A stretch of DNA of 63,171 nt from Bacteroides faecis (GTDB lineage: Bacteria > Bacillota > Clostridia > Oscillospirales > Acutalibacteraceae), in the NCBI GenBank assembly GCA_963625295.1, contig CAVFTC010000001.1, forward strand, positions 1-63,171. The letters are read 5' to 3'. A model generated the notes under the pieces. The model made no database searches, was not told the DNA's origin, and worked only from the letters and a program-made list of their open reading frames with translations. Made by a program: the position numbers and the translations under genes. Shown one piece after another: positions 8,687 to 49,941 of the stretch. The number at the start of each line of letters is the position of its first letter. Position 1 is the first letter of the stretch.

Positions 8687-8801
8687 AACTCTCTTCCTTT
8701 CGGTGGATTGTACTCCAATGCTAACAAATTCCAACAAAAAAGTCAAGAGTTTTTTAAAATTTTACTGAAAAATATCTCATTTTTCGCTGTATTGGCCTGA
8801 A

Positions 8802-29961: not shown

Positions 29962-30046
29962 GCGGATATGGCGGAATTGGCAGACGCGTTGGATTTAGGA
30001 TCCAATATCTTCTGATGTGCAGGTTCAAGTCCTGTTATCCGCACCA
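29962..30046 (+). tRNA. tRNA-Leu (anticodon UAG), type II with long variable arm and encoded CCA
   Basis: Acceptor GCGGATA/TATCCGC, anticodon arm TTGGA-TTTAGGA-TCCAA, T-loop TTCAAGT, discriminator A, then CCA. Confidence 0.9.
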
Positions 30047-33743: not shown

Positions 33744-34071
33744 AATTCTCTCGTCTCTCACTCCCGACGACATAGAAGGGCTGAAAGCAACCGCCGAAGC
33801 GGTTTTCGGCAAAGGCGAGGATCACGCCGAAAAGCAACAGCCGCTGACAGGAACGGATATATTTTCCTCAATTGACCCCAAAATGATTGGCAGACTGACA
33901 AAAATCATGGGCGCAATGAACGGAGAATCCGGCCGCAGATGCAAGCTGATTGAAGCTCTGAAGCCGAATCTTTCGCCCGAGAGGCAGAAAAAAGCCGACC
34001 AGGCAATACAAATACTTAAGCTGCTGGAAATTTTACCGTTAATAAACAATCTAACCAATCGGGATGATTAG
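33730..34071 (+). CDS. Hypothetical small protein (second of three)
   Basis: 113 aa; its stop lies 2 nt before the next ATG. Confidence 0.5.
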   Translation: MDINEILSSLTPDDIEGLKATAEAVFGKGEDHAEKQQPLTGTDIFSSIDPKMIGRLTKIMGAMNGESGRRCKLIEALKPNLSPERQKKADQAIQILKLLEILPLINNLTNRDD

Positions 34072-34073
34072 CT

Positions 34074-34376
34074 ATGCCTCAACAGGATTTCAATACCGCC
34101 GAGCGTCAGGCAATAATGAGAGCAAAGGAGATGTACCGTCGGGCAACAATGTCCCAAAACGGCGGAGAGCCTTTCTTTCAAAAGCAGCCCGCATCGCCGC
34201 AGCTCAACCGCTGTCCGCCGCCTCCGAAGCCCGAGCCTAAACGAAAAAATGAAAGCCGTTCGCCCGGAGCATTTTTTGACGGGGACATGAAGATAATAAT
34301 CGCAATGATGCTCCTGCTTTCCGGAGACGGAGGAGACACGCTGCTGCTGCTTGCGCTGATGTATATAATGCTTTGA
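34074..34376 (+). CDS. Hypothetical small protein with Pro-rich middle and hydrophobic C-terminal tail (third of three)
   Basis: 100 aa; the C-terminus IIIAMMLLLSGDGGDTLLLLALMYIML looks like a membrane anchor. Confidence 0.5.
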   Translation: MPQQDFNTAERQAIMRAKEMYRRATMSQNGGEPFFQKQPASPQLNRCPPPPKPEPKRKNESRSPGAFFDGDMKIIIAMMLLLSGDGGDTLLLLALMYIML

Positions 34377-34432
34377 CCTTGACAAATAATCTCAAATGGA
34401 TTATCATGTTTTCAACAAGGAGGTACAAAGCA

Positions 34433-34690
34433 ATGACATATGAGTATAAAACCAAGGGGACTTGTTCCTCACGCATTACATTTGACCTCGACGGCGACAC
34501 GATAAAAAATGTCAAGTTTATTGGCGGCTGCAGCGGAAACCTTAAAGGAATTTCCGCAATCGTCGAGGGAATGAAGGCCGACGAGGTTGAGAAAAGACTC
34601 AGCGGCATCACCTGCGGCTATAAAAACACATCATGTCCCGACCAGCTTGCCAAGGCAATCGCCGAGGCCTGCGCAAAGAAAAACGGATAA
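34433..34690 (+). CDS. TSCPD-domain (TIGR03905-type, four-Cys) protein
   Basis: 85 aa from the ATG at 34433 (AGGAGG RBS). It has the GTCSS...GGCSGN...CG.K.TSCPDQ pattern. Confidence 0.8.
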   Translation: MTYEYKTKGTCSSRITFDLDGDTIKNVKFIGGCSGNLKGISAIVEGMKADEVEKRLSGITCGYKNTSCPDQLAKAIAEACAKKNG

Positions 34691-34720
34691 GGCGAGCGTT
34701 GCTAAAGCTATACAGCATTC

Positions 34721-34765
34721 AAAATGGCGGAAATCACCGGTTGATTTCCGCCATTTTCTGTTTTT
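34721..34765. terminator. Bidirectional terminator
   Basis: 14-bp stem AATGGCGGAAATCA...TGATTTCCGCCATT with a T-rich tail, between convergent genes. Confidence 0.8.
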
Positions 34766-34766
34766 A

Positions 34767-35849
34767 TCAGTCAAGCTTTACCTTGTATGTCCAGCCCATG
34801 TCGTCCTCAACATGACCTGTCTGCATACCGTAGAGCGTATCGTAAAGCTTCTGAGCGATCGGACCTACATTGCCGTCGGCAACCTTGTAATCCTCGCCCA
34901 TGTAATAAAGTGTGCCGATCGGAGAGATAACTGCGGCAGTACCGCTGGCAAATACCTCCTTGAGAGTGCCTGCCTTGGAGGCTGCGCATACATCGTCGAT
35001 TGAAAGGCGTCTCTCCGATACCTTTACTCCCCACTTCTTGAGAAGCTCGATGACGGACTTTCTTGTAATACCGGGAAGAATCGTACCCATAAGCGGAGCA
35101 GTGATGACCTCGTCGCCGATTACGAAGAAGGCGTTTGAAGTGCCGATCTCCTCAACATACTTATGCTCAACAGCGTCAAGCCAAAGAACATCCTTGCAGT
35201 CATGCTCCATAGCCTTTGCCGAAGCCTTCATGCCACCTGCATAGTTGCCGCCGCACTTTGCAAAGCCTGTACCGCCGACAGCCGCACGGATGAATTCATC
35301 CTCAACATAAATCCTTGTCGTGTGAAGTCCGCCGTCGTTTGCGGCATAGTAAGAACCGACGGGGCAAAGAATGATGATAAAGCGATAATGCTTTGCCGGA
35401 AGAACGCTGAACGAAACCTCGTCGCCGAAGATAAACGGTCTGATATAAAGAGCGGTTGCCGGCTCGGTGGGTATCCAATCCTTATCAACGGTAATAAGCT
35501 GGTTGATGGCGTCAAAGAAAATATCCTTTTCCATATGCGGAATACACATACGGTCATTGGTTCTGTTCATACGCTCAAAGTTCTCCTCGGGTCTGAAAAG
35601 CTGAACATCGCCCGACGGAGTTTTATATGCCTTCATGCCCTCGAACATCATCTGGGCATAGTGGAGCACGCATGAAGCGGGTTCAATGGCGATCGGCTCA
35701 TGCGGAACAATTCTTCCGTCATGCCAGCCCTGTCCCTCATCGTAGTCGATCATAAACATATGATCCGTGAAATATTTACCGAAGCCGAGCTTCTTCTGAT
35801 CCGGCTTCTCCTTCGGATGTGTTGTTCTTGTTACTGGAAATGTATACAT
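34767..35849 (-). CDS. ilvE: Branched-chain amino acid aminotransferase
   Basis: About 360 aa from the ATG at 35849 (AAAGGAG RBS). Type IV aminotransferase motifs: FGKYFTDHMF, EGMKAY, GGTG.AK.GGNYA. Confidence 0.9.
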   Translation of the reverse strand: MYTFPVTRTTHPKEKPDQKKLGFGKYFTDHMFMIDYDEGQGWHDGRIVPHEPIAIEPASCVLHYAQMMFEGMKAYKTPSGDVQLFRPEENFERMNRTNDRMCIPHMEKDIFFDAINQLITVDKDWIPTEPATALYIRPFIFGDEVSFSVLPAKHYRFIIILCPVGSYYAANDGGLHTTRIYVEDEFIRAAVGGTGFAKCGGNYAGGMKASAKAMEHDCKDVLWLDAVEHKYVEEIGTSNAFFVIGDEVITAPLMGTILPGITRKSVIELLKKWGVKVSERRLSIDDVCAASKAGTLKEVFASGTAAVISPIGTLYYMGEDYKVADGNVGPIAQKLYDTLYGMQTGHVEDDMGWTYKVKLD

Positions 35850-35881
35850 TTCTGTCGCTCCTTTCAAAGCATTCATTTTGT

Positions 35882-35917
35882 CAATGCCGCACATCTCAAT
35901 TGTGCGGATTTGCCTTA
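35882..35917. repeat. Solo MITE terminus (contains the internal CCGCACA/TGTGCGG hairpin)
   Basis: The reverse complement reads TAAGGCAAATCCGCACAATTGAGATGTGCGGCATTG. Its terminal TAA is the stop codon of the C-N hydrolase gene. Confidence 0.75.
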
Positions 35918-36721
35918 TAATTCATAGAGATCGGGTTTTCTGTCGTTGAAAACATTGATCGAGCTTCTTATATCCTTTATTATTCCGAAATCGCAGTCAG
36001 CTGTGATGACCTCCTGCGCCTCGCCTGCCGCAGCGAGCACCTCGCCCCACGGGTCGATTATCTGCGAATGACCGCCGAAAACTGCGTCCGGTGTTTTTCC
36101 GCAGGAGTTGCAGCAGACAACAAACATCTGATTTTCAATCGCTCTTGCTCTTGTGAGTGTAACGATGTGTTCCTTTCTCGCAAGAGGCCACTGCGACACC
36201 ATAAACAGCATGTCAATGCCCCTTAGGGCAAGGCTTCTGACAAGCTCGCAGAAGCGGATATCGTAGCAGATTACGACGCCGCACTTATGTCCGTCAAGCT
36301 CGAAGGTCACAAGCTTTTCGCCGAAGCTAAAATATTTGTGCTCGTCCATCGGGGTGAAAAGGTGCGTCTTGTCATATTCGGCAACGACATCGCCCTTACG
36401 GTTGAAAACAAACGCCGTGTTGTAAATCCCGCCGTTCTTTTCGTTGGCGATACTGCCGGCAACGATGTTTACATTAAGCTCCCTTGCCAACGCCGAAAAG
36501 GTCTTTTTCAGCCTCTCGCCGTCTTTGTCACAATAGCTCGAAAGATTTTCCTTGGGATAATATCCCGTCGTCCATGTTTCGGGAAGAACGATAACATCGG
36601 ATTTTTCTTTCGCTGCCGTCTCCCTTATCAGTCTGACAGCCTCGTTGTAGTTATATTCAACATCGCCGAGCTTCATATCAAGCTGAATGCAGGAAGCCTT
36701 CATTGTATTATTCATAATCAT
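35915..36721 (-). CDS. Carbon-nitrogen hydrolase (nitrilase/omega-amidase superfamily)
   Basis: Catalytic E-K-C contexts: VLPE, the Lys in YDKTHLF and the Cys in GVVICYDIRF. Alternative starts are 36739, 36715 or 36703. Confidence 0.8.
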   Translation of the reverse strand: MIMNNTMKASCIQLDMKLGDVEYNYNEAVRLIRETAAKEKSDVIVLPETWTTGYYPKENLSSYCDKDGERLKKTFSALARELNVNIVAGSIANEKNGGIYNTAFVFNRKGDVVAEYDKTHLFTPMDEHKYFSFGEKLVTFELDGHKCGVVICYDIRFCELVRSLALRGIDMLFMVSQWPLARKEHIVTLTRARAIENQMFVVCCNSCGKTPDAVFGGHSQIIDPWGEVLAAAGEAQEVITADCDFGIIKDIRSSINVFNDRKPDLYEL

Positions 36722-37247
36722 AACCTGCCTTGACAGCACCCTTGTTCACATCAAGGAGATCAAGGTGACGGGCGGAAACAACCTTCTTGAGTGCGTCATC
36801 GGTATAATCAATCGAAAACTGCGGCACTTCCTTGAGAATCTTGCCCGTGATTATCATATTCGCAAGGGTCGGCGTTCCGTTATCGTTCGCCATTTTTGTT
36901 GCAGGAATATAATATACATCAACATCTGTTCTGTCAATCTTTTTGTCGATCATTGTTGAATCAACAAAAATCTTTCCGCCGCTGACAACATCGTTTTCGT
37001 ATTTTTCAAGTGACGGAAGATTCATTGCAACAAGCACATCCGGCTTGTCAACGATTGGAGAGCCGATCGGCTCGTCGCTGATAATCACGGAGCAGTTGGC
37101 AGTGCCGCCTCTCATTTCCGGTCCGTAGGACGGAAGCCAGCTGACCTGCTTGCCCTCGATAAGTCCCTTATATGCAAGGAATTTGCCTGCAAACAGAATT
37201 CCCTGTCCGCCGAAGCCTGCGAATAACATTCTGCAAGTGCTGCTCAT
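36708..37247 (-). CDS. 2-oxoacid:ferredoxin oxidoreductase, gamma subunit
   Basis: 179 aa; the GFGGQGI motif typical of POR/KOR/VOR gamma subunits. Confidence 0.85.
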
Positions 37248-37999
37248 TTTTCTTCCTCCTTTGCATAGATATCCTTGTAAACGCCGAGAGGATAGTAAGG
37301 AATCATGTTCTCCTCTGCCCAGTCAAGAGCCTTCTGCGGAGTCATTCCCCAGTTTGTAGGGCAGGTTGAAATAACCTCAACGAGAGAAAAGCCCTTGCCC
37401 TCAAGCTGATTCTTGAATGCCTTTTTGATAGCCTTTTTAGCGTTCTTGACATTTTTTACATTGTTGACAGCAACTCTCTCAAGATATGCCGCACCGTCAA
37501 CATTTGAAAGAAGCTCGCAAACCTTAACGGGATAGCCGACGGTGTTGACATCTCTGCCGTAGGGTGAGGTCTGGGTGACCTGACCGGGAAGCGTTGTCGG
37601 AGCCATCTGACCGCCCGTCATACCGTAAATAGCATTGTTAACGAAAATAACGGTGATATTCTCCCGTCTTGCAGCGGCATGAACCGTCTCGGCAGTACCG
37701 ATAGCGGCAAGGTCGCCGTCGCCCTGATATGTGAATACAACCTTTGACGGGTCGCTTCTCTTAACGCCTGTTGCAACGGCAGGAGCACGGCCGTGAGCCG
37801 CCTGAACAAAATCACATGTGAAATAGTTATATGCCATAACAGAGCAGCCGACCGATGCGACGCCGATCGTATCACCCTCGATTCCAAGCTCATCAATTAC
37901 CTCTGCAACCAGACGGTGAATAATACCGTGAGTACAGCCGGGACAATAGTGAAGCGTTGCGTCCGTCAATGATTTCGGTTTTTCAAATACAACTGACAT
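37244..37999 (-). CDS. 2-oxoacid:ferredoxin oxidoreductase, beta (TPP-binding) subunit
   Basis: CPGCTHG, GDGD....G and [10 protein letters not shown] motifs. The start at 37999 overlaps the alpha stop (TAATG). Confidence 0.85.
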
Positions 38000-39057
38000 T
38001 ATTCTGCACCTCCGTTTGACATGATAGCCGAAAGAACATCCTCCGGCGTCGGGATCATTCCGCCGACACGGTTGCAAAGCTCAACCGGTCTTTTGCAATC
38101 GATCGCAAGCTTCACATCGTCGATCATCTGACCCATGTTCATTTCAACAGTTATAAATCTCTTGCACTTCTCGGCAGCAGCCTTGAGCGGCTTTGTCGGG
38201 AACGGCCAGAGCGTGATCGGTCTTATCATGCCGACCTTGACGCCTCTCTTGCGTGCCTCATTGACTGCGTTCTTTGCCACACGGGCGGTGATACCGAACG
38301 CAACAACGCAAACCTCGGCGTCCTCCATGAGATATTCCTCGTACATCGTTTCGTTTTCTTCGATCGTCTTATATTTCTGATATCTCTCGAAATTCTTTAT
38401 TTCAAGCTCCTCGGGCTTGAGGTAAAGCGAATTGACTATGTTATGCTCTCTCTCACACTTTGTGCCGGTGAGTGCCCACGGCTTTTCAACCGGAGTTACC
38501 TCGGCAACATCGAGGGAAACCGGCTCCATCATCTGACCCATTGTGCCGTCGGCAAGGATCATTGCAACCATTCTGTATTTATCCGCAAGCTCAAAGCCCT
38601 TGACGGTGAGGCTTGCCATTTCCTGAACGGAAGCCGGTGCAAGTACGATATTGTGGTAATCGCCGTGTCCGCCACCCTTTGTTGACTGCCAGTAATCCGA
38701 CTGTGAGGGCTGAATTCCGCCGAGTCCGGGGCCGCCACGCTGAACATTGACCACGAGTGCGGGAAGGTCGCAGCCGGCGAGATATGAAATACCCTCGCTT
38801 TTAAGCGAAACTCCGGGGCTGGAGGAGGAGGTCATGACTCTCTTGCCTGTTGACGAAACGCCGATAACCATGTTGATTGCAGCGATCTCGCTCTCCGCCT
38901 GCAGGAATGTTCCGCCGATCTTCGGCATACGCTTTGACATGTAAGCCGCAACCTCTGTCTGCGGAGTTATGGGATAACCGAAGTAATGTCGGCAGCCTGC
39001 TCTGATAGCAGCCTCGGCAATTGCTTCGTTGCCTTTCATAAGTACTTTATCTGACAT
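37999..39057 (-). CDS. vorB: 2-oxoacid:ferredoxin oxidoreductase, alpha subunit (VorB-like)
   Basis: [36 protein letters not shown]-terminus typical of VorB/KorA-type alpha subunits. The longer track ORF runs into the ferredoxin gene. Confidence 0.8.
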
Positions 39058-39062
39058 TTTCT

Positions 39063-39269
39063 TCACCTCTCTACCGTAATAACACAATCGGGGCACATTG
39101 TAGCGCAGAAGGCGCATCCGATACACTTTTCCTGTTCCGTCACAACTGCGGGATGATGTCCCTTGTTGTTCAAAGTCGTCTCTGACAAATGAACTATTCC
39201 CTTGGGACAAGCGTTCACGCAAAGTCCGCAGCCCTTGCAAAGGTCTGTTTTGAATGTTACTTTAGCCAT
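39063..39269 (-). CDS. 2x[4Fe-4S] ferredoxin (delta subunit)
   Basis: Two CxxCxxCxxxCP motifs in 68 aa. Confidence 0.9.
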   Translation of the reverse strand: MAKVTFKTDLCKGCGLCVNACPKGIVHLSETTLNNKGHHPAVVTEQEKCIGCAFCATMCPDCVITVER

Positions 39270-39281
39270 TTGACATTCCTC

Positions 39282-39938
39282 CTAATTTATTTTCGCCTGT
39301 AGGGTAAGCGGAAGCATATTGCTCACTCGCCCGTACAGCTCTTTATAAAGCGTCTTTTTTACGGTAGTCATCGCAACGGGAAGCCCCGTAAGCTTTGAAA
39401 CCTCATCGGCATATTTGAGCGAATCAAGAACATCCTGAGCGGTCGTCTCCTCGCCGAGATTTGAGTTGTTTATTATAGCCGTAAATTTCATTGAACCGGC
39501 TTTTTCGATTTCATTCATGACCTCAAGGGTGCTGTAAGCGTCCCTTGTCAGCGGTCTGTACATGTTTATTACAAGAAACATCTCATAGTCGTTTTCCCGT
39601 ACTATGCTTTCGGAATAGCGGCCGAGAGCGTATGCGCCTCTGTCGTCGCCGCCGATATCCATAACAGCGTATTCCGTGCGGTCGTCAATGACAGAATATA
39701 TATCCTGCGGCAGCGAGGGAAGATCAACATTTGAGCTTGCAAAGTCCGAGCAGATAAGTCTTATCCCGGCGGCTTTAAGCTCCTTTTCGCTGTCCTTGGT
39801 TCTGAAATACGGGTTGACGATATCCAAATCCGCAACAGCCACCTCAAGACCCTGCTGTCTGAGCTTAAAAGCGTAATTGACCGCTATATTCGTTTTTCCG
39901 CTGCCGTAATGACCGGCAAAAAGCGTTATGCGCTTCAT
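39282..39938 (-). CDS. MinD/ParA/CooC-like P-loop ATPase
   Basis: Deviant Walker A GHYGSGKTN; 218 aa; first gene of the oxidoreductase operon. Confidence 0.7.
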   Translation of the reverse strand: MKRITLFAGHYGSGKTNIAVNYAFKLRQQGLEVAVADLDIVNPYFRTKDSEKELKAAGIRLICSDFASSNVDLPSLPQDIYSVIDDRTEYAVMDIGGDDRGAYALGRYSESIVRENDYEMFLVINMYRPLTRDAYSTLEVMNEIEKAGSMKFTAIINNSNLGEETTAQDVLDSLKYADEVSKLTGLPVAMTTVKKTLYKELYGRVSNMLPLTLQAKIN

Positions 39939-39953
39939 TATTTCACCCCAATA

Positions 39954-39988
39954 TAGATTTTAGACTTTAGATTGTAGATATTAGATAT
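39954..39988. repeat. Five tandem heptads TAGATNN
   Basis: TAGATTT TAGACTT TAGATTG TAGATAT TAGATAT, 16 nt upstream of the P-loop gene start and overlapping its putative -10. Confidence 0.8.
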
Positions 39989-40000
39989 TCCGATAATCAA
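39971..40000 (-). promoter_or_regulatory. Candidate promoter of the P-loop/VOR operon
   Basis: On the minus strand: TTGATT, 18 nt, TACAAT. Confidence 0.4.
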
Positions 40001-40020
40001 ATCTTTAATATCTAATCGGT

Positions 40021-40330
40021 GTGCCAAACCTTAGGATAAATTGTTCAGCGTGCGTCGAGTTCAAGGCGACAGGCTGACGCAACTATGTGTATTGCTAAGT
40101 CTGTCAACGCAGAAATCGGCGTACCAAACCTTAGGATAAATTGTTCAAGGTGCGTCGAGTTCAAGGCAACAGGCTAACGCAATACTATGTGTATTGCTAA
40201 GTCTGTCAACGCAGAAATCGGCGTGCCAAACCTTAGGATAAATTGTTCAGGGTGCGTCGAGTTCAAGGCGACAGGCTGACGCAATACTATGTGTATTGCT
40301 AAGTCTGTCAACGCAGAAATCGGCGTGCCA
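40021..40330. repeat. Three head-to-tail ~101-bp direct repeats plus a 6-nt partial fourth unit
   Basis: Units at 40021-40120, 40121-40222 and 40223-40324. Unit 1 vs unit 3 differ by 1 substitution and a 2-nt indel; unit 2 vs unit 3 differ by 4 substitutions. Each unit holds a ~17-bp imperfect hairpin. Confidence 0.95.
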
Positions 40331-40338
40331 TGGACAAT

Positions 40339-42609
40339 TTACAGCTGATTACGGATGATTTTGCCGCTTATAGTCTTTGGAAGCTCGTCCTTGAACACAA
40401 CGATTCTCGGGTACTTGTAAGGAGCGGTGTGCTTCTTAACATAGTTCTGAATTTCTTTTTTAAGCTCCTCGGTCGGCTCTGTGCCCTTGGTAAGGACAAT
40501 GGAAGCCTTGACGACCTGTCCTCTTACCTCGTCGGGAGCAGCGGAAACGCCGCACTCAAGAACATAAGGAAGCTCCATGATAACATTTTCGATCTCGAAC
40601 GGTCCGATACGGTAGCCGGACGATTTGATAACATCGTCGATACGGCCGACATACCAGAAATATCCGTCCTCATCACGCCATGCGATATCGCCCGTGTGAT
40701 AAACGCCGTCGTGCCAAACCTCGTCTGTACGATCCTGATTTCTGTAGTAGCCGAGGAATATACCGCACGGTACTTTCTCGGAAGTGTTGACGCAGATTTC
40801 ACCGGTTTCACCGATATCCGCTTCCGTTCCGTCGGGACGAAGAATCTTGATGTCGTAAAGCGGCGTCGGCTTGCCCATTGAGCCGGGCTTCGGAGTCATT
40901 CCGGTGAGCGTTGCTATTCCAAGAGTCATCTCCGTTTGACCGAAGCCCTCCATAAGCTCAAGTCCGGTAGCATTATAGAACTGGCGGAATACCTCCGGGT
41001 TAAGTGCCTCACCGGCTGTTGTTGCGTGACGGATAGAGGAAAGATCGTACTTTGCGAGATCCTCCTTTATCATCATTCTGTACATCGTCGGAGGTGCGCA
41101 GAATGTTGTGATGTTATATTGCTTGAACATCGGAAGAATATCCGACGCATCGAAGCGGTCGAAGTTATATACAAATACTGCGCCCTCGCAGAGCCACTGT
41201 CCGTAGAGCTTGCCCCAAAGAGCCTTGCCCCAGCCGGTGTCGGAGATTGTAAGGTGAAGTCCGTCCTTGCTTACGCAGTGCCAATATTTAGCGGTGATAT
41301 AGTGTCCGAGCGGATATTTGTAGGAATGGGTTGCGATTTTCGGATAGCCCGTTGTGCCGGAGGTGAAGAACATAAGCATCGGATCGTTTCCGCACGGTGC
41401 GTCCTCTTCCCTTCTGTATCTTCTGGAGAACAGGCTGTATTCGCTGTCGAAGCTGTGCCAGCCCTCACGCTCGCCGCCGACAATGATTTTGTTGACGAGA
41501 GTATGCGTCTTTGCGTCGGCGATGTCAACCTGATGAGCGGTGTCGCCGTCGGCTGTGCAAAGAATTGTCGTTACTCCTGCCGCCTCAAATCTGTACTCAA
41601 AGTCATGGTCAACAAGAAGATTCGTTGCCGGAATTGCGATTGCGCCGATCTTATGAAGCGCAAGGATTGCAAACCAGAACTGATAATGACGCTTGAGAAC
41701 AAGCATTACCCTGTCGCCCTTCTTTATGCCGAGCGACTTGAAGTAGTTGGCCGCCTGTGCCGAGTGCTCCTTGACATCCTTAAATGTGAAGATGCGTTCC
41801 GTCTTATCGCGGTCAACATGAACGAGTGCACGCTTGTCAGGGGATTTTTTTGCAATTTTATCAACGATATCAAAAGCGAAGTTGAATTCATCCTCATGAT
41901 TAAAATCAATGGAAACAAGATTTCCGTTTTCGTCCTCTGTTGCGTCAATAAACTTCTCGCAAACATAGCTGCCCTTTGCCTTTACGCCCTTGACAGCTCT
42001 TTCGTGAACGATATTCGTTACCGTATCATCACTTGCCATGACCATCGCAAGGAAGAGACAATCCCTGCCGTCGATGGCAACCATTCCGTGAGGCGTTGAG
42101 GAGTTATAATAAATGCTGTCGCCCTCGTTAAGAATCTCCTCATGATTTCCGACTCTTACTCTCAGTGAACCGCTGATAACGATATCGAACTCCTGACCAC
42201 CGTGAGTTACGGTGCTTATCGGTTTATTTTCAAGCTCCGCGTCATACTCGTATCTAACCCAGTACGGCTCGGAAAGCTTTTTTCTGAAATTCGGTGCAAG
42301 GTTTTTGATTTCGATTCCGTTCTCGCTGGCGGTGATCTGACCCTTGCCCAGTCTTGTAACGGTATAGGATGAAAGCACGGCGCTGTGACCTTCAAGAAGA
42401 TCCGTAATGCCAATGTCAAAAGCAAGTGCACACTTGTGAATAAAAGTGAAAGGAAGGTCAACCGTTCCGCTCTCATAGAGCCTGTAGGTTTCAACAGAGA
42501 CTTCAGACTTCTCCGCCATTTCCTCAACGGTAAAGCCGCATATGTCTCTCATTTCCTGGATACGCTCAGCAACCTCATAAAGCTTGTTTGATTCGTTTTG
42601 ATTTGACAT
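40339..42609 (-). CDS. XRE-HTH + cupin domain fused to an AMP-forming medium-chain acyl-CoA synthetase
   Basis: N-terminal ~190 aa: HTH (ICGFTVEEMAEKSEVSVETYRLYESG) and cupin (GQEFDIVISGSL...YYNSSTPHGM). Remainder: ACSM/MacS-like ligase (MFFTSGTTGYPK, YGQTE, YHTGD, SGKIIR). Confidence 0.85.
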   Translation of the reverse strand: MSNQNESNKLYEVAERIQEMRDICGFTVEEMAEKSEVSVETYRLYESGTVDLPFTFIHKCALAFDIGITDLLEGHSAVLSSYTVTRLGKGQITASENGIEIKNLAPNFRKKLSEPYWVRYEYDAELENKPISTVTHGGQEFDIVISGSLRVRVGNHEEILNEGDSIYYNSSTPHGMVAIDGRDCLFLAMVMASDDTVTNIVHERAVKGVKAKGSYVCEKFIDATEDENGNLVSIDFNHEDEFNFAFDIVDKIAKKSPDKRALVHVDRDKTERIFTFKDVKEHSAQAANYFKSLGIKKGDRVMLVLKRHYQFWFAILALHKIGAIAIPATNLLVDHDFEYRFEAAGVTTILCTADGDTAHQVDIADAKTHTLVNKIIVGGEREGWHSFDSEYSLFSRRYRREEDAPCGNDPMLMFFTSGTTGYPKIATHSYKYPLGHYITAKYWHCVSKDGLHLTISDTGWGKALWGKLYGQWLCEGAVFVYNFDRFDASDILPMFKQYNITTFCAPPTMYRMMIKEDLAKYDLSSIRHATTAGEALNPEVFRQFYNATGLELMEGFGQTEMTLGIATLTGMTPKPGSMGKPTPLYDIKILRPDGTEADIGETGEICVNTSEKVPCGIFLGYYRNQDRTDEVWHDGVYHTGDIAWRDEDGYFWYVGRIDDVIKSSGYRIGPFEIENVIMELPYVLECGVSAAPDEVRGQVVKASIVLTKGTEPTEELKKEIQNYVKKHTAPYKYPRIVVFKDELPKTISGKIIRNQL

Positions 42610-42651
42610 GATTTTTACCTCCGTAACATACCGGGAACCGATTTCGGATAA

Positions 42652-42947
42652 AACAAAAAATCCGTCCCAAAGTCATTAGAACTTTGAGACGGATTTGAAT
42701 ATCCGCGGTACCACTCAAATTGCGATCTGCTATTGCTTCTCGCCTCTCTGCAGGATCTGACAATCCCTCAACACTGACGTAGTTGTCACGGGAGAAACTA
42801 CTGTAGTTTTCATCTCTCCGGCTCGGAAGTGATGGGCTTTACATTTACCTCGCTATCGGCTCGCACCAAACGCCGACTCTCTGAAAGGACATAAACGCAA
42901 CCGTCTTCGTCACAGCCTTTGTTTCAACAGGTTATTTGTACCTGTTG
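42652..42947 (-). promoter_or_regulatory. T-box riboswitch leader, putative Ile (AUC) specifier
   Basis: Minus strand shows a K-turn (TGACGAAG / CTTCCGAGCC), AGAGAG bulge, distal loop GGTGCGA, T-box AATTTGAGTGGTACCGCGG (42703-42721) and the terminator TCCGTCTCAAAG...CTTTGGGACGGA + TTTTTT. Confidence 0.85.
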
Positions 42948-42953
42948 CGGTAC

Positions 42954-42982
42954 ATTATAAGATACTTTTCACAATTTTTCAA
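42954..42982 (-). promoter_or_regulatory. Promoter of the T-box(Ile) leader
   Basis: On the minus strand: TTGAAA, 17 nt, TATAAT. Confidence 0.7.
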
Positions 42983-42991
42983 GGGATATTT

Positions 42992-43009
42992 TGTAATATA
43001 AGTATTACA
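42992..43009. promoter_or_regulatory. Palindromic operator candidate TGTAATA-N4-TATTACA
   Basis: Perfect 7-bp inverted repeat 9 nt upstream of the -35. An identical motif with identical spacing lies at 47278-47295. Confidence 0.6.
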
Positions 43010-43019
43010 TTGTGTAATG

Positions 43020-45518
43020 TTACGCAGTTACAACAGAATTTGCCTTTTGCAGTCCGTATTTCTTGATTGCGTCCTCACGCATCTTGTATTTAAGAATCTT
43101 ACCGGCAACATTCATCGGGAACTCGGACACAAAGTCAATGTACTTCGGCACTTTATGCTTCGCCATATGAGAAAGAACATAGTCCTTCATCTCCTGCTCG
43201 GTCATGGTTTCGCCCTCCTTGAGGATAATGCAAGCCATTATCTCCTCGCCGAGTCCCTCGTCGGGAACGCCGATTACCTGAACATCCTTGACCTTCGGGT
43301 GGGTGTAAATGAACTCCTCAATCTCCTTGGGATAGATATTCTCGCCGCCACGGATAATCATATCCTTAAGTCTGCCTGTGATTCTGTAGTTGCCCTCCGG
43401 AGTGCGGCACGCAAGGTCGCCGGTATGAAGCCAGCCGTCCTTGTCGATTGCGCTTGCCGTAGCCTTCGGCATTTTATAGTAACCCTTCATGATGTTGTAT
43501 CCACGGGCAACGAACTCACCGGTCACATTGTCCGGGCATTCAAGACCCGTATCGGGGTCAACGATTTTACATTCGATTTTCGGAAGCGGATGACCGACAG
43601 TAGCCACACGATCCTCCAGCGGGTCGTCAGTGCTGCTCATCGTACAGCCCGGAGATGATTCCGTCTGACCGTAAACGATTGTGATTTCGGTCATATGCAT
43701 TTTTTCGACAACCTCACGCATCTTTGAGATCGGACACGGCGAGCCTGCCATGATACCCGTTCTCATGTATGAAAAATCGGTCTTTTCAAAGTCGGGGTGC
43801 TGTAGCATTGCGATAAACATCGTCGGAACGCCGTGGAAAGCCGTTATACGCTCGGAATTTATACACGCAAGCGATGATTTCGGCGAGAAATACGGTAATG
43901 GGAGAGCCGTTCCGCCGTGGGTCATGATGGCAGTCATGGCAAGAACCATGCCGAAGCAATGGAACATCGGAACATGGATCATCATTCTGTCCGCCGTTGA
44001 AAGATCCATTCTGTCGCCGATACACTTACCGTTGTTTACGACATTGTAGTGGGTAAGCATAACGCCCTTCGGGAAGCCTGTTGTACCGGAGGTGTACTGC
44101 ATATTGCATACATCGTCCCTCCTGACAAGAGAAGCCATTCTGTAGACCTCCTCGACAGGAACCTCGCTCGACTTGTCAACCGCCTGCTCCCATGTCATAC
44201 AGCCCTGCTGCTCATAGCCGACCGTAATAATATTTCTCAAAAACGGCAATCTCTTTGCGTGGAGCTTTTCGCCGCTCTTGGTGCTTTCCAGCTCAGGGCA
44301 AAGCTCAGCCATGATCTCGTCATAGTGTGAGTCTCTGTAGCCCTTTATCATAATCAGCGTATGAGTATCCGACTGTCTGAGCAGATATTCCGCCTCGTGA
44401 ATTTTATATGCCGTGTTCATTGTAACAAGAACAGCGCCGATTTTGGTGGTCGCCCAAAACGAAATATACCACTGCGGAACATTGGTTGCCCAAACGGCAA
44501 CATGAGAGCCGGCTTTTACGCCCATTGCAATAAGCGCTCTCGCAAAGGTATCAACATCGTCACGGAACTGCGCATATGTTCTCGTATAGTCAAGCGTTGT
44601 ATATTTGAATGCAAGCTGATCGGGAAACTCCTCAACCATTCTGTCAAGAACCTGCGGGAATGTCTCCTCGATAAGCTCCTCTTTTTTCCAGATGAATTTG
44701 CCTGTATGGGTCTTGTTGTAGTAGTATTTCTTCTTGCTTGTCTCGTCCGCAACAGTCTCCATAAAGCTCTCATAATGAGTCAAAATGATTTCAAGATCGT
44801 CTATCGACTCGAACCACTCGGGATTCCATTCAACGCAAACAAAGCCGTTGTAATTTATCGAGCCGAGAGCATTCATCATGTCCTTGATAGGCATTGCGCC
44901 CTCGCCGATGAGAGTGTGCTCGCCTGCCTTCACGGCGTCGGTCAGATGGACAAGCTTGACATATGCGCCAAGGTTGGTAATGGTCTTTTCCGAATCCTCG
45001 CCGCCGACGAAGTATGTTTCATACATATTCCAATCTGCGCCGATAAAGTCGCTTGCAAAATAGTTCATCAAATCGCAGAGCCTTGTCGTGTCGGCAAAAA
45101 TGCCCGTCGTTTCGACAAGGACGATAACATTGTGCTTTTCGCCCTCTGCGATAGCCTTGCCGATGAACTCAAGCGCCTTTTCGTAAGCGTCTTCGCCACC
45201 CTCAACATAGAGCTTGACATAGGGAATGTTTATGTTGCTTGCAACGGTGATAGCCGAGTTCATTTTTTCAATATTTTCGTCGGAATTATCTGCGGCGTTG
45301 CAGTTTGAATTTATGCAAACTATGCTCTTTTTCGAGTTGATGAGCTTTCTTTTGGTTGCCGAAGCCATGTCAGGATTAAACGGTGAGGTTCTGCCTGAAA
45401 ACATTGCGTCACGAAAATCGTGGATCTCAACTCCGCCGTATTTCAGCTCATCCGCCATATTGAGAAAGTCATCAAAGCTTTTATTCTTATGAAATCTTGT
45501 AGAAAAAGCTAATTTCAC
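43020..45518 (-). CDS. Xylose-isomerase-like TIM-barrel domain fused to an AMP-dependent acyl-CoA ligase
   Basis: N-terminal ~270 aa resemble AP-endonuclease-2 / sugar-phosphate-isomerase TIM barrels. The C-terminal ~560 aa are a FadD-type ligase (MQYTSGTTGFPKGVMLTH, YGQTE, LHTGD, AGKILK). GTG start with a GGAGGG RBS, 2 nt after the upstream stop. Confidence 0.8.
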   Translation of the reverse strand: MKLAFSTRFHKNKSFDDFLNMADELKYGGVEIHDFRDAMFSGRTSPFNPDMASATKRKLINSKKSIVCINSNCNAADNSDENIEKMNSAITVASNINIPYVKLYVEGGEDAYEKALEFIGKAIAEGEKHNVIVLVETTGIFADTTRLCDLMNYFASDFIGADWNMYETYFVGGEDSEKTITNLGAYVKLVHLTDAVKAGEHTLIGEGAMPIKDMMNALGSINYNGFVCVEWNPEWFESIDDLEIILTHYESFMETVADETSKKKYYYNKTHTGKFIWKKEELIEETFPQVLDRMVEEFPDQLAFKYTTLDYTRTYAQFRDDVDTFARALIAMGVKAGSHVAVWATNVPQWYISFWATTKIGAVLVTMNTAYKIHEAEYLLRQSDTHTLIMIKGYRDSHYDEIMAELCPELESTKSGEKLHAKRLPFLRNIITVGYEQQGCMTWEQAVDKSSEVPVEEVYRMASLVRRDDVCNMQYTSGTTGFPKGVMLTHYNVVNNGKCIGDRMDLSTADRMMIHVPMFHCFGMVLAMTAIMTHGGTALPLPYFSPKSSLACINSERITAFHGVPTMFIAMLQHPDFEKTDFSYMRTGIMAGSPCPISKMREVVEKMHMTEITIVYGQTESSPGCTMSSTDDPLEDRVATVGHPLPKIECKIVDPDTGLECPDNVTGEFVARGYNIMKGYYKMPKATASAIDKDGWLHTGDLACRTPEGNYRITGRLKDMIIRGGENIYPKEIEEFIYTHPKVKDVQVIGVPDEGLGEEIMACIILKEGETMTEQEMKDYVLSHMAKHKVPKYIDFVSEFPMNVAGKILKYKMREDAIKKYGLQKANSVVTA

Positions 45519-45520
45519 AA

Positions 45521-46936
45521 TTAACCCTCCTCGTATGCTATCTTGTTCAGTGCGCTGACATATGCACGGATGCTTGCGCCGATAATATCTGTCGAAATGC
45601 CTGTTCCGGAATAGAGCTTTCCGGTCGAGCTTCTGAGCTTAACGAGCGCATGACCCATGGCCTCACGACCCTCGGTAACGGCTTGAATCTGGAAATCGTC
45701 CAGCTCGTAGTGATGTCCGATAATCTGCTCGATTGCAAGAAACGCCGCATCAATCGGACCGTCTCCGACGCTCACACCGCTGACCACCGTGCCATCCTTG
45801 ACAAGCTTGATGTTAGCGGTTGCGGTAATAATGTTACCGCTGTTGATAACATAGCTTTCAATCGAATAGCTTGAGGGAACCTGCAATGCGGAGGAGGCTA
45901 TAATTACTTCAAGCTCCTTTGTGCCGACAAAGTCCTTCTTAACGGCAACACGCTTGAACGCCTCATAAACATTTGAATTATCCTCGGGAGAAAGGTCGTA
46001 GCCGATTTTTTTAACCGCCTTTATAACGGTTGCTATCGTGTCGTTTTTATCAAGAGTGAGGCTCTCGCCGTCCTCGTTTACACCTGTTTCAAACGGCGTA
46101 TTCTCACTCTTGGAGGTGTTGAGCATTCTTTTTATTTGACCCGTAACACGCTGAAGCTCTGTCGTCCTTATCTTGCTTGAGGCCTTTATAGAATCACCTC
46201 TGAGGGTGAATATCTTCATGATTTTTTCAACCGTCGGGAAGTTGAAATTGTCTGCCGTAACCTTGATCTGCGACGCTCCGGCTTCGATTGCGGCGAATGC
46301 GGAGGCGGAGGCCATGTTCATTGAGTCAACGACCTCAACGCCGACCGTAGCATTCTTGGCGGACGGAACATTCTCAAAAATATCCGAGATAAAGCCGCCG
46401 AATTCGGACGGGAACATCGTACCCTCGGAGTCGCAAACAGTGACCCTCGTTGCGCCTGCCTTTATCGCTTCTTCTATCGCCTGATACAGGAACGGTCTTT
46501 CGGCTCTCACTGCGTCCTCAGCCGAGAATTCAATGCTGTCGGTGTACTTTTTGCACTCGGTGATAAGCTCTGTTACCATGCTCATCACCACCGGCGGCTT
46601 TTTGCCGCACTTGAACTCCATCTGAACCGCAGACATCGGGAGAGAAACCTTAAGAGAAAACTTCTTTGCACCCTTTGCGCAGTTATAAGCCGTTTCAACG
46701 CCCGCCGCATCATAACCAACATCAACGGCGATTTCCGAATGCTTCATAAGCGAAGCGATCGTTTTTATAAGAAGAACATCGGTTGATGTGTTCTTTATTT
46801 TCGGCATCTCGATGATATCGCAGTGCAGCTTGTCCATCTGCTTTGCGATCTCGATCTTCTCCTTAAAGCTTAAGGAATGGCTGGCTGACGACTCGCTTTC
46901 TCTGAGCGTCACATCGGATAAAATTACTTTTCTCAT
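45521..46936 (-). CDS. 2-isopropylmalate-synthase homolog (HMGL-like TIM barrel + LeuA regulatory domain) with degenerate catalytic motifs
   Basis: 471 aa from the ATG at 46936 (AAAGGAG RBS). Colinear with LeuA, but DTTLRDGEQ is SDVTLRESES, HTHxD is VEVVD and GIGERAGN is ADNFNFPT. The C-terminal LeuA-dimer-like domain is intact. Confidence 0.8.
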   Translation of the reverse strand: MRKVILSDVTLRESESSASHSLSFKEKIEIAKQMDKLHCDIIEMPKIKNTSTDVLLIKTIASLMKHSEIAVDVGYDAAGVETAYNCAKGAKKFSLKVSLPMSAVQMEFKCGKKPPVVMSMVTELITECKKYTDSIEFSAEDAVRAERPFLYQAIEEAIKAGATRVTVCDSEGTMFPSEFGGFISDIFENVPSAKNATVGVEVVDSMNMASASAFAAIEAGASQIKVTADNFNFPTVEKIMKIFTLRGDSIKASSKIRTTELQRVTGQIKRMLNTSKSENTPFETGVNEDGESLTLDKNDTIATVIKAVKKIGYDLSPEDNSNVYEAFKRVAVKKDFVGTKELEVIIASSALQVPSSYSIESYVINSGNIITATANIKLVKDGTVVSGVSVGDGPIDAAFLAIEQIIGHHYELDDFQIQAVTEGREAMGHALVKLRSSTGKLYSGTGISTDIIGASIRAYVSALNKIAYEEG

Positions 46937-46959
46937 AACGATTCTCCTTTTGAAGTTAT

Positions 46960-47233
46960 AAAAAAACAAAGTCCCGGAAGTATTCAAACTTCCGGGACGA
47001 TAAAACATGTTTACCGCGGTACCACCCGCATTGCCTAAACGGCCTCTTCGGATTCTGACAAATCCTAAGCTGTGATAACGGTGCTTGCCGTAGCTCCTTA
47101 TACAGTAAAGACGGTTGGGGAGCTCTGCTCGGATACGAGACAGCAATTAAATTTCCATATCGGCTCACACCTACCGCCGACTCTCTGAAATCAGAAATAA
47201 AACGCTTAATATCTTCAACGCATTTCAAATATT
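46960..47233 (-). promoter_or_regulatory. T-box riboswitch leader, putative Leu (CUC) specifier
   Basis: Minus strand shows a K-turn (GCGTTGAAGATA / TATCCGAGCA), AGAGAG bulge, distal loop GGTGTGA, T-box GCGGGTGGTACCGCGG (47014-47029) and the terminator GTCCCGGAAG...CTTCCGGGAC + TTTGTTTTTTT. Confidence 0.85.
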
Positions 47234-47239
47234 GCAGTT

Positions 47240-47268
47240 ATTATAGTAAACTTTTTTTAATTTGTAAA
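47240..47268 (-). promoter_or_regulatory. Promoter of the T-box(Leu) leader
   Basis: On the minus strand: TTTACA, 17 nt, TATAAT. Confidence 0.7.
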
Positions 47269-47277
47269 CAGACAAAA

Positions 47278-47295
47278 TGTAATATTTGTATTACA
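47278..47295. promoter_or_regulatory. Palindromic operator candidate TGTAATA-N4-TATTACA (second copy)
   Basis: Perfect 7-bp inverted repeat 9 nt upstream of the -35, with the same geometry as 42992-43009. Confidence 0.6.
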
Positions 47296-47303
47296 AAATG
47301 TAA

Positions 47304-48125
47304 TTACTTCAAAAGCTCCGCATTGAGCGTTTTTCCGTAAGCTGTTGCGGCATTGACAAGACCCTCATCGGGAATCGTCTGCATAATGGGCTTGCCGGTG
47401 CTGAGAATTCTGCAATAGATCTCCGCTGATTTCTCGATTGTATGCATAAGACCGAAGGCTGCGTCAAATGTGTTGCCCGATACAAAAAGTCCGTGGTGCG
47501 CCCATACGATGGCGTCGTATTTCTTTTGAAGCTCGCAGGTCTTGTGAGCTATCTCCGCTCCGCCGGGAATCATCCATTCAACAACGCCGACGCCGTTCGG
47601 GAAAATGATCGGGCACTCCGTCATGCTCTCCCAGAGAACTCTTGAGAAAGCCTCGGAGGTAAGCGGAAGAACAAATGTGAGAGCGATAATGTTAACGGGA
47701 TGGGCATGGTAGATAACTCTGCAAGCGCCGTCCGTTGCCGCAACACGAACGCTGTGGTTCATGAAATGGGTCGGGAACTCGCTTGTCGGGCCGCCGCCGT
47801 TAACAAGACCCCATACGATTCTGTAGCCGTCGCCTGCGTCGTTGATTTCAAGAATGCACATATTTGCCGCCGGATCTCTGATAACATTCTGGAAGAACTT
47901 ACCCGTACCCGTTACCATGAAATACTCATTTTTAAGGTTGTCCGCCTGAACGCCGAGATCAACCCACGGCCTGTCATATGTAAAGTAAGGCTTGCAAGCC
48001 TCTACCTCTTCGGCTGTCATACGGTAGGAAAGGTTTCCGCCGTTGCCCTCATGCCAGCCCTGCTCATAGCCGTCGTTGCAGGTAAGAGCAAACTTTTTGA
48101 TTACATCAAGATCCAAAATACTCAT
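47304..48125 (-). CDS. rhaD: Rhamnulose-1-phosphate aldolase (class II aldolase)
   Basis: 273 aa, colinear with E. coli RhaD: GW.E.NGGNL, VTG.GKFF.NV..DPAAN, PTSE.P.HF, HAHP.N.IALT, HGLF..G. Confidence 0.85.
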   Translation of the reverse strand: MSILDLDVIKKFALTCNDGYEQGWHEGNGGNLSYRMTAEEVEACKPYFTYDRPWVDLGVQADNLKNEYFMVTGTGKFFQNVIRDPAANMCILEINDAGDGYRIVWGLVNGGGPTSEFPTHFMNHSVRVAATDGACRVIYHAHPVNIIALTFVLPLTSEAFSRVLWESMTECPIIFPNGVGVVEWMIPGGAEIAHKTCELQKKYDAIVWAHHGLFVSGNTFDAAFGLMHTIEKSAEIYCRILSTGKPIMQTIPDEGLVNAATAYGKTLNAELLK

Positions 48126-48195
48126 TTTAAAAACTCCTATATTTAAAATTCAAATTATGTTACCACTTTAAGCCGCTGTTGTCAATCATGAGTTC

Positions 48196-48296
48196 TTAAG
48201 GCAACACCGCACAAATCGAGGCGCACGCCTTGTTCGGTAACCGCTGATTAAACCATAGCACAATTCGCACACCTCAATTGTGCGGTATTGCCTTAA
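48196..48296. mobile_element. Internally deleted (~101-bp) MITE derivative retaining both termini
   Basis: TTAAGGCAACACCGCACAAATCGAGGCGCACGCCTTG...ATTCGCACACCTCAATTGTGCGGTATTGCCTTAA. It encodes the araB C-terminal KAIPHN*. Confidence 0.85.
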
Positions 48297-49941
48297 TCTC
48301 TTTAAGACGCTTCATGACATTGTTCTCTCCCCTTCCGAAATAATCGTGGAGGGTTTTATACTCGGCAAAAAGCTTATCGTAAAGCTCAACATTCTCGGGA
48401 ATCGGATAATAGACCTTATCCTTGACCTTGCCGAGAGCTGCCGCACCGTCATAAAGGCTGTCATAGCCGCCCTTCTCCGCTCCTGCGGCACATGCGCCGT
48501 AAATCGCACTGCCGAGCGCACCGCCCTGTTCGCAGTCGGCGATCTTGATAGGCATATTGATAACATCGGCATAGATCTGCATCGTCATCGGATCCTTCTG
48601 ACTGATACCGCCTGCGGCATAGAAGGAGTTGACATCGACGCCGTTCTCTTTGAACACATCAATAATCATTCTTGTTCCGTAGGCCGTTGCTTCAATCAAG
48701 GCTCTGTAAATATCCTCGGGCTTTGTTCTGAGCGTCATTCCGAGTATCATACCCGAAAGATCCGCATCGACAAGCACAGAACGAACACCGTTCCACCAAT
48801 CAAGCGCAACAAGTCCGCTCTCGCCGGGCTTTTTCTGTTCACACTTTTGACGGAGGAATTTATGTATATTTACTCCCTGCTTCTCCGCCTCGTCATAGTA
48901 GCTCTTCGGCAGACAGTTGTCTATGAACCAGCTGAAGTGGTCGCCGACGCAGCACTGACCGGCTTCGTAAGCATAAAGTCCGGGAAGAATACCGTCGGCT
49001 ACAACGCCGCTGATGCCCGGTACGGGAATTTCCTCCTCGCTCAGAAGCATATGACAGGTTGAAGTACCCATGATAGCCAGCATCTCGCCCGGCTTCGTGA
49101 TGCCTACGGCAGGAACGAAAACATGAGCGTCAATGATAGGAACGGCAACAGCCGTGCCCTCCTTGAGTCCTGTCAGCTCGGCAAACTCAGCCGTGACCTC
49201 GCCCGCCTTTGAGCCGAGAGGAAGAATATCTCTTGAGAATTTCTCGTCAATAACATGCTCCATTCTTGGGTCAAGAGCTTTGAAAAACTCGTCCGACGGG
49301 TATCCGTTTTTCTTGTTCCACATGCCCTTGTAGCCGGCGCAGCAGGAATTGCGGATCTCATGACCGCACATCTGCCAGACGACCCAGTCGGCTGCTTCAA
49401 TAAAACGGTCGGCCTCGTCATAAATCTCGGGGGCTTCGTCAAGAATCTGCCAAAGCTTAGGAATCGCCCACTCGGAGGAAATCTTTCCGCCGTAGAGCTT
49501 GAGCCAGTCCTGATTCATCTTTTCGGCAATCTCATTGAGCTTTGTTGCCTGAGCCTGCGCGGCATGGTGCTTCCAGAGCTTAACATAAGCGTGCGGCTCG
49601 TCTTTAAACTTATCAATAAAGCAAAGCGGCGTGCCGTCCTTCTTGACGGGCATAACCGTGCAGGCGGTGAAATCAAGTCCAAGACCGATGATATCCTCCG
49701 CATTTACTCCGCTCTTTTTTATAACATCGGGAATCGTTGTTTTGAGCACATCAAGATAATCCTGCGGATCTTGAAGCGCCCAGTCGGCTCCGAGCTTTTT
49801 GCCGCTCGGAAGCGTCTCGTCCATTACGGCATGAGGATAATCGAGAACCGAGGTTGCAAGCTCCTCGCCTGTTTTCACATCAACGAGCAGCGTTCTGCCC
49901 GAAAGAGTACCGAAATCCACGCCGATTGCGTATTTAGCCAT
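48274..49941 (-). CDS. araB: Ribulokinase (FGGY family)
   Basis: 555 aa, closely colinear with Bacillus AraB: [39 protein letters not shown]. Confidence 0.9.

Follow-up and report, generated by a model that had tools for sequence, protein, structure and literature searches.

A T-box leader with an isoleucine specifier codon precedes an acyl-CoA synthetase fusion gene and a putative branched-chain amino acid supply operon in an Oscillospirales contig

The stretch of DNA considered here (the window) comprises the first 63,171 nucleotides of contig CAVFTC010000001.1 in GenBank assembly GCA_963625295.1, which is deposited as Bacteroides faecis and placed by GTDB in the Acutalibacteraceae (Clostridia, Oscillospirales). 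Its minus strand carries a T-box leader RNA with an isoleucine specifier (42652..42947, predicted start through terminator U-run), recognized by its motifs and by a match to Rfam family RF00230. Behind the leader, on the same strand, lie a gene for a 756-amino-acid protein that joins HTH_3 and Cupin_2 domains to an AMP-forming acyl-CoA synthetase (40339..42609), a gene for a P-loop protein, genes for the subunits of a 2-ketoisovalerate:ferredoxin oxidoreductase (VOR), and a gene for the branched-chain aminotransferase IlvE. What does this leader sense, and what would the genes behind it supply?

Leader anatomy and specifier codon

The element is a canonical transcription-attenuation T-box, and the RNA itself is ordinary. 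In an Rfam covariance-model (CM) scan RF00230 matches the minus strand at 42682-42922 over the whole model (positions 1-219) with 103.2 bits, above the gathering threshold of 93 (E-value 1.1e-21), and a wider permissive Rfam scan of the neighbourhood returns the same RF00230 result for this leader. The initial annotation, made from the letters of the sequence, had already called a T-box here, and every motif it listed is found at its claimed place on the minus strand. Stem I (42821..42916), delimited by CM alignment and covariation, consists of a K-turn base in which GC..UGUGAC..GAAG pairs with CUUC..CGA..GC, a specifier loop, an AGAGAG bulge (42877-42882) and a distal stem GUCGGC/GCCGAU with the 11-nucleotide loop GUUUGGUGCGA. 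The AGAGA of the bulge and the distal loop both align to the RF00230 consensus; the elements that dock on the tRNA elbow are thus present. Stem II and the IIA/B element are present in the CM alignment as well. The specifier had originally been positioned by analogy with leaders of the glyQS type, and that analogy gave the right position; the short glyQS layout does not apply, as a leader with Stem II and IIA/B is a full-length T-box.

The 3' half of the leader contains the switch. The T-box sequence AAUUUGAGUGGUACCGCGG (42703-42721, with a UGGU bulge at 42710-42713) belongs to an antiterminator (42685..42721; CM alignment) that reads UGAG, a UGGUACC bulge, GCGGA-loop-UCCGU, and CUCA. An intrinsic terminator hairpin with its U-run (42650..42696; terminator scan and folding) is mutually exclusive with this antiterminator: the 5' arm of the terminator holds the antiterminator 3' strand, the common segment being UCCGUCUCA. 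The terminator stem (42658-42696) has 15 base pairs and is followed by UUUUUUGUUUU, and the region has a folding energy of -32 kcal/mol (z -4.7 relative to dinucleotide shuffles). Past the terminator come a GGAGG ribosome-binding site and the ATG at 42609. Upstream of the leader lies a promoter-like site, TTGAAA-17-TATAAT (42954..42982), which agrees with 11 of 12 consensus positions and is a consensus match only.

Relatives of the locus allow the structure and the codon to be examined comparatively. HTH, cupin and AMP-binding fusions like the 756-amino-acid protein form a large family in Clostridia metagenome genomes; in a scan of one genome per species at least 594 loci encode a relative, and 80 of these were analysed, with the loci mapped by nhmmer using the window leader and by tblastn using the window proteins. 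All 80 are from Oscillospirales (Acutalibacteraceae, Ruminococcaceae and Oscillospiraceae) of human, ruminant, horse and deer guts. One locus, L003, is 99% identical to the window and hence from the same species. Across 147 Stem I sequences, the structure derived from Rfam pairs in 84% of cells, against 69% for column shuffles and 27-44% for slid partners, and all 21 pairs vary on both sides. The lower stem (GC/GC, GAAG/CUUC) pairs in 99.5-100% of cells with GC/AU/UA/CG exchanges, and the distal stem pairs in 93.8%, also with covariation. The middle of Stem I pairs poorly (47-49%) in the MAFFT alignment under the Rfam register; because RNAalifold favours a helix displaced towards the codon in the isoleucine class, we do not rely on the Rfam register for this part.

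The specifier of the window leader is AUC (42831..42833), followed by A at 42830. In the CM alignment, GUAAAG-ccc-AUC-A-CUUC-CGA-GC, the specifier slot is filled by AUC and the A after it, the same triplet that the initial annotation had named. To read the triplet in other leaders, we anchored a tabulation on the lower stem and K-turn for each T-box class. Among leaders before the orthologous synthetase (the Ile class), 74 of 75 have ATC, while the flanks vary: the preceding base is C or T, and the following base is A in 38, C in 26, G in 9 and T in 2, that is, a purine in 47 of 75 and C or U in 28 of 75. Leaders before a second synthetase paralog (the Val class) have GTA in 42 cases and GTC in 3, a valine codon in 45/45; those before a LeuA-like gene (the Leu class) have CTC in 29 and CTG in 3, a leucine codon in 32/32. 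The Val and Leu classes thus change only synonymously at the predicted position, an indication that this triplet functions as a codon. Rfam alignments of eight loci place the specifiers in the same registers (AUC+A, GUA+A, CUC+G/A, CUG+G), and these alignments, the anchored tabulation, RNAalifold and the pair counts agree on the specifier register.

Could the antiterminator bulge also tell which tRNA is bound? A UGGU bulge calls for the discriminator base A73, which suits tRNA-Ile and equally tRNA-Val and tRNA-Leu. The compatibility with tRNA-Ile noted in the initial annotation is therefore correct but does not discriminate isoleucine, and tRNA specificity rests on the codon.

The specifier loop of the Ile class is predicted to be compact, and it lacks the S-turn consensus. 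With RNAalifold on the window and 70 relatives, it closes to 5' AC / 3' (C/U)AUC(N), about 2 x 5 nucleotides, and the upper helix reaches to within one base of the codon, with covariation (UA in 36, CG in 20, AU in 8 and UG in 4). In most respects the leader resembles canonical T-boxes (RF00230; the Bacillus subtilis tyrS and ileS leaders), with which it shares the K-turn base, a specifier codon 5' of the lower-stem 3' strand, the AG bulge, the distal loop, Stem II, IIA/B, the UGGN antiterminator bulge and the competing terminator. It differs from them in the compact loop (5' AC / 3' C-AUC-A) without S-turn nucleotides, in a post-codon purine that is not conserved, and in its target, which is an acyl-CoA synthetase fusion and not a tRNA synthetase, a transporter or a standard biosynthetic gene.

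The regulated genes and their relatives

The gene directly under the leader (40339..42609, minus strand) had been described as an acyl-CoA synthetase fusion, and domain matches to HTH_3, Cupin_2 and AMP-binding families agree. We propose from domain, NCBIfam and PDB matches that it encodes a 2-methylbutyrate-CoA ligase. Its synthetase domain matches PDB entry 3ETC (E-value 3e-193) with 54% identity over 515 residues, i.e., across the whole catalytic domain. This structure is MacsMa of Methanosarcina acetivorans, for which 2-methylbutyrate is the preferred substrate (PMC10455477). MacsMa differs in being without the N-terminal HTH-cupin part and, as an archaeal enzyme, would not be expected to stand under a T-box; for the window protein, 2-methylbutyrate is the substrate predicted from sequence likeness. 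The best NCBIfam model for the same domain is methylbutyryl-CoA synthetase MbcS (NF047394; 432.4 bits, E-value 2e-129). With an equivalog cutoff of 850 the score falls well short, and we accordingly do not class the window protein as MbcS. The Staphylococcus aureus MbcS handles branched short-chain acids; it serves membrane fatty-acid synthesis and, unlike the window gene, is not tied to VOR or IlvE.

The N-terminal 190 residues of the fusion (41950-42609) contain the HTH_3 and Cupin_2 pair, as seen by profile match. When 11 sequences, the Val paralog among them, are combined into a profile of this region, it matches 1Y9Q, an HTH_3/cupin regulator, and the epoxidase HppE (1ZZ6), the latter over the full length (E-value 4e-4); a single-sequence search with the 220 N-terminal residues gave no PDB match. 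In 1Y9Q and HppE the two domains occur in the same order as in the fusion, the difference being that here the pair is joined to an acyl-CoA synthetase. His136, Glu140 and His174 are invariant in the Ile and Val paralogs, which suggests a metal site.

Next on the strand is a CbiA/ParA-like P-loop protein (39282..39938), recognized by weak Pfam matches and with no NCBIfam match. Wherever a related locus reaches that far, the gene almost always lies between the ligase genes and VOR, and its product may act in Fe-S cluster delivery. The VOR set has four subunits, with TPP_enzyme_C and POR domains present: a 68-amino-acid 2x[4Fe-4S] ferredoxin as delta subunit (39063..39269; two CxxCxxCxxxCP motifs), an alpha subunit of the VorB subfamily (37999..39057; NF005507, 544.9 bits against a cutoff of 399), a thiamine diphosphate-binding beta subunit (37244..38077, start codon uncertain) and a gamma subunit (36708..37247), the last two identified by domain and NCBIfam matches with their models below the equivalog cutoffs. 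The true start of the alpha subunit is the ATG at 39057. The ferredoxin reading frame escapes default length thresholds for open reading frames and is masked by a spurious TTG extension of the alpha-subunit frame. A carbon-nitrogen hydrolase of the nitrilase superfamily (35915..36739; domain matches) separates VOR gamma from IlvE; it occurs only in the window, L003, L044, L046 and L062, and one could speculate that it acts as an omega-amidase and so draws a glutamine-dependent transamination toward its products. IlvE (34767..35894) scores above both of its cutoffs (NF009897, 465.4 against 307; TIGR01123, 375.6 against 250). A palindromic terminator hairpin (34721..34757, terminator scan) marks the end of the operon.

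A second T-box lies upstream on the minus strand (46990..47227; RF00230, 94.9 bits), with the leucine specifier CUC at 47137-47139, a promoter (47240-47268, promoter scan) and a terminator (46971-46998, terminator scan). Under it are a LeuA-like synthase with HMGL-like and LeuA_dimer domains (45521..46936), which is divergent and below every NCBIfam isopropylmalate synthase cutoff, and a fusion of a xylose-isomerase-like TIM barrel with another AMP-forming acyl-CoA synthetase (43020..45518; domain matches). We find no terminator-like site between the TIM-barrel fusion gene and the promoter of the Ile T-box, and transcripts of the Leu unit should therefore enter the Ile T-box. In related loci the Leu unit is placed upstream, downstream or divergently. 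The only tRNA gene in the window is a tRNA-Leu with anticodon UAG (29962-30046, plus strand), which is not the CUC-reading tRNA for the Leu T-box.

How constant is this arrangement in other species? A T-box stands directly upstream of the orthologous synthetase in 78 of the 78 loci that have upstream sequence, and in nearly all related loci VOR and IlvE follow closely. The Val-class paralog (58-65% identity) is present in most loci and has no counterpart in the window. In most relatives this HTH-cupin-ligase, with its own Val T-box, sits between the Ile ligase and the VOR genes (e.g., L008 6404-6690, L016 11317-11620), and two T-boxes of different specificity are then found in series within one gene string. 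The pairing of T-box class with synthetase type is conserved across the related loci. There are also less usual placements: in L009 a Val T-box (3112-3362) immediately precedes the P-loop gene, without an intervening ligase, and in L069 a third T-box (8454-8730), whose specifier is not readable with confidence, directly precedes the P-loop and VOR genes.

A proposed route from 2-methylbutyrate to isoleucine and its alternatives

We consider it likely, judging from the sequence comparisons above, that the Ile-specific T-box senses isoleucine shortage and that the operon behind it converts exogenous 2-methylbutyrate to isoleucine. With tRNA-Ile charged, the 15-base-pair terminator would form and transcription would halt before the first gene. 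When it is uncharged, its anticodon would pair with AUC and the UGGU bulge with its free ACCA end; this would stabilize the antiterminator and allow transcription of the operon. The MacsMa-like AMP-forming synthetase would then convert 2-methylbutyrate to 2-methylbutyryl-CoA, the four-subunit VOR would reductively carboxylate this thioester to 2-keto-3-methylvalerate, and IlvE would transaminate the keto acid to isoleucine. The initial annotation had treated the target as non-canonical. By name it is indeed unusual for a T-box; functionally it would be an amino-acid-supply target, since it heads what appears to be a complete isoleucine route.

The VOR reaction is reversible, and the direction has to be argued from the regulation. 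Uncharged cognate tRNA is the signal by which a T-box activates its genes, a logic that fits synthesis and not breakdown, and an AMP-forming ligase runs toward the thioester, in the direction of activation; together these favour the biosynthetic direction. Further support comes from the Ile, Val and Leu specifiers, which are matched one-to-one with three ligases on one VOR/IlvE cluster, a pattern that is hard to explain otherwise. The same degree of confidence extends to the wider picture, in which a shared VOR/IlvE core across the Oscillospirales would be fed by up to three synthetases, each behind a T-box that names the amino acid served (isoleucine, valine or leucine). The chemistry has precedent: reductive carboxylation of 2-methylbutyrate to isoleucine is recognized in rumen anaerobes and has been invoked for the 2-methylbutyrate requirement of Methanobrevibacter ruminantium (PMC2812497).

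Several observations weigh against a 2-methylbutyrate-to-isoleucine operon. The substrate assignment rests on 54% identity to one characterised enzyme, and the synthetase scores below the MbcS cutoff. The operon assignment is genomic only, and the direction of VOR is deduced from regulation. The conserved HTH-cupin and P-loop proteins stand outside the proposed pathway steps. Genes of the standard ilv pathway were not found in the window, from which a genome-wide lack of the threonine/pyruvate route does not follow. The consensus AGUA/GAA S-turn nucleotides are absent from the specifier loop of the Ile class. Finally, a 400-nucleotide spacer with promoter-like repeats splits the synthetase from the VOR genes, and VOR may be independent of the T-box here.

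This spacer, between 39938 and 40339, gives rise to the most serious alternative. It contains a 102-nucleotide tandem repeat (40014..40330; 3.1 copies, 94% matches), each unit of which has a GCAATAC/GTATTGC hairpin, and two units include exact TTGACA-16-TAGTAT sites on the gene strand (40182-40209 and 40284-40311). The T-box might then govern the synthetase gene alone, with the P-loop, VOR and IlvE genes expressed mainly from promoters in the repeat, independently of tRNA-Ile charging. Repeat copy number differs between the window and L003 of the same species (3.1 and 1.9 copies), which speaks for such a role. Against it, the promoter sites are consensus matches only, and such a spacer is missing from the close relatives L001 and L002; in L001 the P-loop gene starts about 25 nucleotides past the end of the synthetase match. 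Moreover, there is no terminator-like site on the gene strand between the synthetase reading frame and the VOR genes, so that T-box-dependent transcripts should run on. Read-through into VOR, as suggested by the initial annotation, is accordingly plausible; as the sole source of VOR transcripts it is not, given the promoter-like sites in the repeat. We regard separate control of the downstream genes as unlikely, although deserving of real weight, and it would alter the extent of the regulon, not the pathway. The spacer does not hide a decayed Val T-box: an Rfam scan of 34000-48500 with E-values up to 1 gave only the two T-boxes and chance matches to microRNA (miRNA) models, and this candidate was ruled out.

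A second alternative concerns the fate of the acyl-CoA. Anteiso branched-chain fatty acids need a primer, for which isoleucine is the usual source, and supplying this primer is the role described for S. aureus MbcS. The synthetase under the Ile T-box might thus provide 2-methylbutyryl-CoA for membrane fatty acids when isoleucine is scarce, amino-acid synthesis being secondary or absent. MbcS is the top NCBIfam match of the synthetase domain, and the acyl-CoA product could serve both fates. Classical work on ruminococci, as cited in one paper (ref. 21 in PMC7709123), has branched acids built into higher branched-chain fatty acids. Primer supply as the principal function nevertheless seems quite improbable to us, since it would leave unexplained the linkage to VOR and IlvE in nearly all related loci, the Val and Leu T-boxes on the sister synthetases and the LeuA-like gene in the Leu unit.

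The cluster could also be read as catabolic, with IlvE and VOR degrading isoleucine to 2-methylbutyryl-CoA and the T-box link incidental or inverted. VOR enzymes are known chiefly for oxidative reactions in amino-acid fermenters, and gut studies tie such enzymes to branched short-chain acid production (e.g., bioRxiv 10.1101/401489). We reject this reading as very improbable: induction by uncharged tRNA is not the signal expected for a pathway that degrades the amino acid, the AMP-forming ligase spends ATP, no ATP-yielding enzyme that takes acyl-CoA to the acid is among the gene products assigned here, and three amino-acid-specific T-boxes match three ligases. Least credible of all is that the specifier is some other triplet or the T-box a decayed one that no longer binds tRNA, a possibility raised by the missing S-turn nucleotides and by the 3-nucleotide insertion (ccc) that the Rfam alignment requires directly before AUC but opposed by the near-constancy of ATC beside variable loop flanks in leaders whose synthetases are 68-99% identical to the window protein, by the purely synonymous differences in the sister classes and by the intact state of the remaining motifs and terminator.

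Relation to known systems and other features of the window

Supply genes induced by uncharged branched-chain tRNA are familiar from the branched-chain amino acid T-box operons of Bacillales and Clostridia (PMC2494555). Those operons encode the standard ilv/leu pathway, whereas the proposed route of isoleucine synthesis in the window starts from a branched short-chain fatty acid. Two T-box surveys (PMC2494555, PMC3766115) make no mention of acyl-CoA ligases or ferredoxin oxidoreductases, and a search of full-text literature, which covers few subscription journals, found no paper that ties T-boxes to an acyl-CoA synthetase, VOR or branched-acid assimilation. The reductive carboxylation route of rumen anaerobes and methanogens has been defined by labelling and not by genes, and a 2020 paper still described the reverse VOR reaction as theoretical and unproven for Prevotella (PMC7709123); here it is proposed from genes alone, with activation, ferredoxin-dependent carboxylation and transamination all encoded in one same-strand cluster. 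The regulon appears to be new, a T-box-labelled gene set for a long-known reductive-carboxylation route to branched-chain amino acids.

If so, the specifier acts as a genomic label that names the amino acid served by the downstream genes. Read in this way, specifiers assign likely substrates to three uncharacterised ligase types (2-methylbutyrate; isobutyrate; isovalerate or a leucine precursor) and argue for a carboxylating VOR in hundreds of uncultured Oscillospirales species of gut and rumen. They make testable which genes lie behind the requirement of fibre-degrading ruminococci for branched-chain volatile fatty acids, and how cross-feeding of branched acids contributes to amino-acid supply in the gut. 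T-box biology would gain a new class of regulated genes and many naturally occurring leaders whose compact specifier loop lacks the S-turn consensus.

A more speculative extension, to which we give slightly less than even credence, is that the cluster is the genetic basis of the long-known branched-chain fatty acid requirement of ruminococci and their relatives. The Ile, Val and Leu T-boxes would act at the RNA level as substrate selectors, each switching on a dedicated ligase that feeds the shared VOR and IlvE. With T-boxes of different specificity in series within one transcription unit, expression of the genes beyond them would be subject to more than one amino acid. The HppE-like HTH-cupin part of the Ile and Val ligases might add a second layer of control, by metal or ligand sensing or by DNA binding.

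The flanks of the cluster are unrelated to it and contain rhamnose genes, TrkAH, a GH95 fucosidase and housekeeping genes. Between the genes for rhamnulose-1-phosphate aldolase and an FGGY-family sugar kinase there is a palindrome (48197-48295, both strands) with weak, sub-threshold matches to a miRNA model (31.6 and 25.9 bits, against a gathering threshold of 88); it is most likely a plain hairpin.

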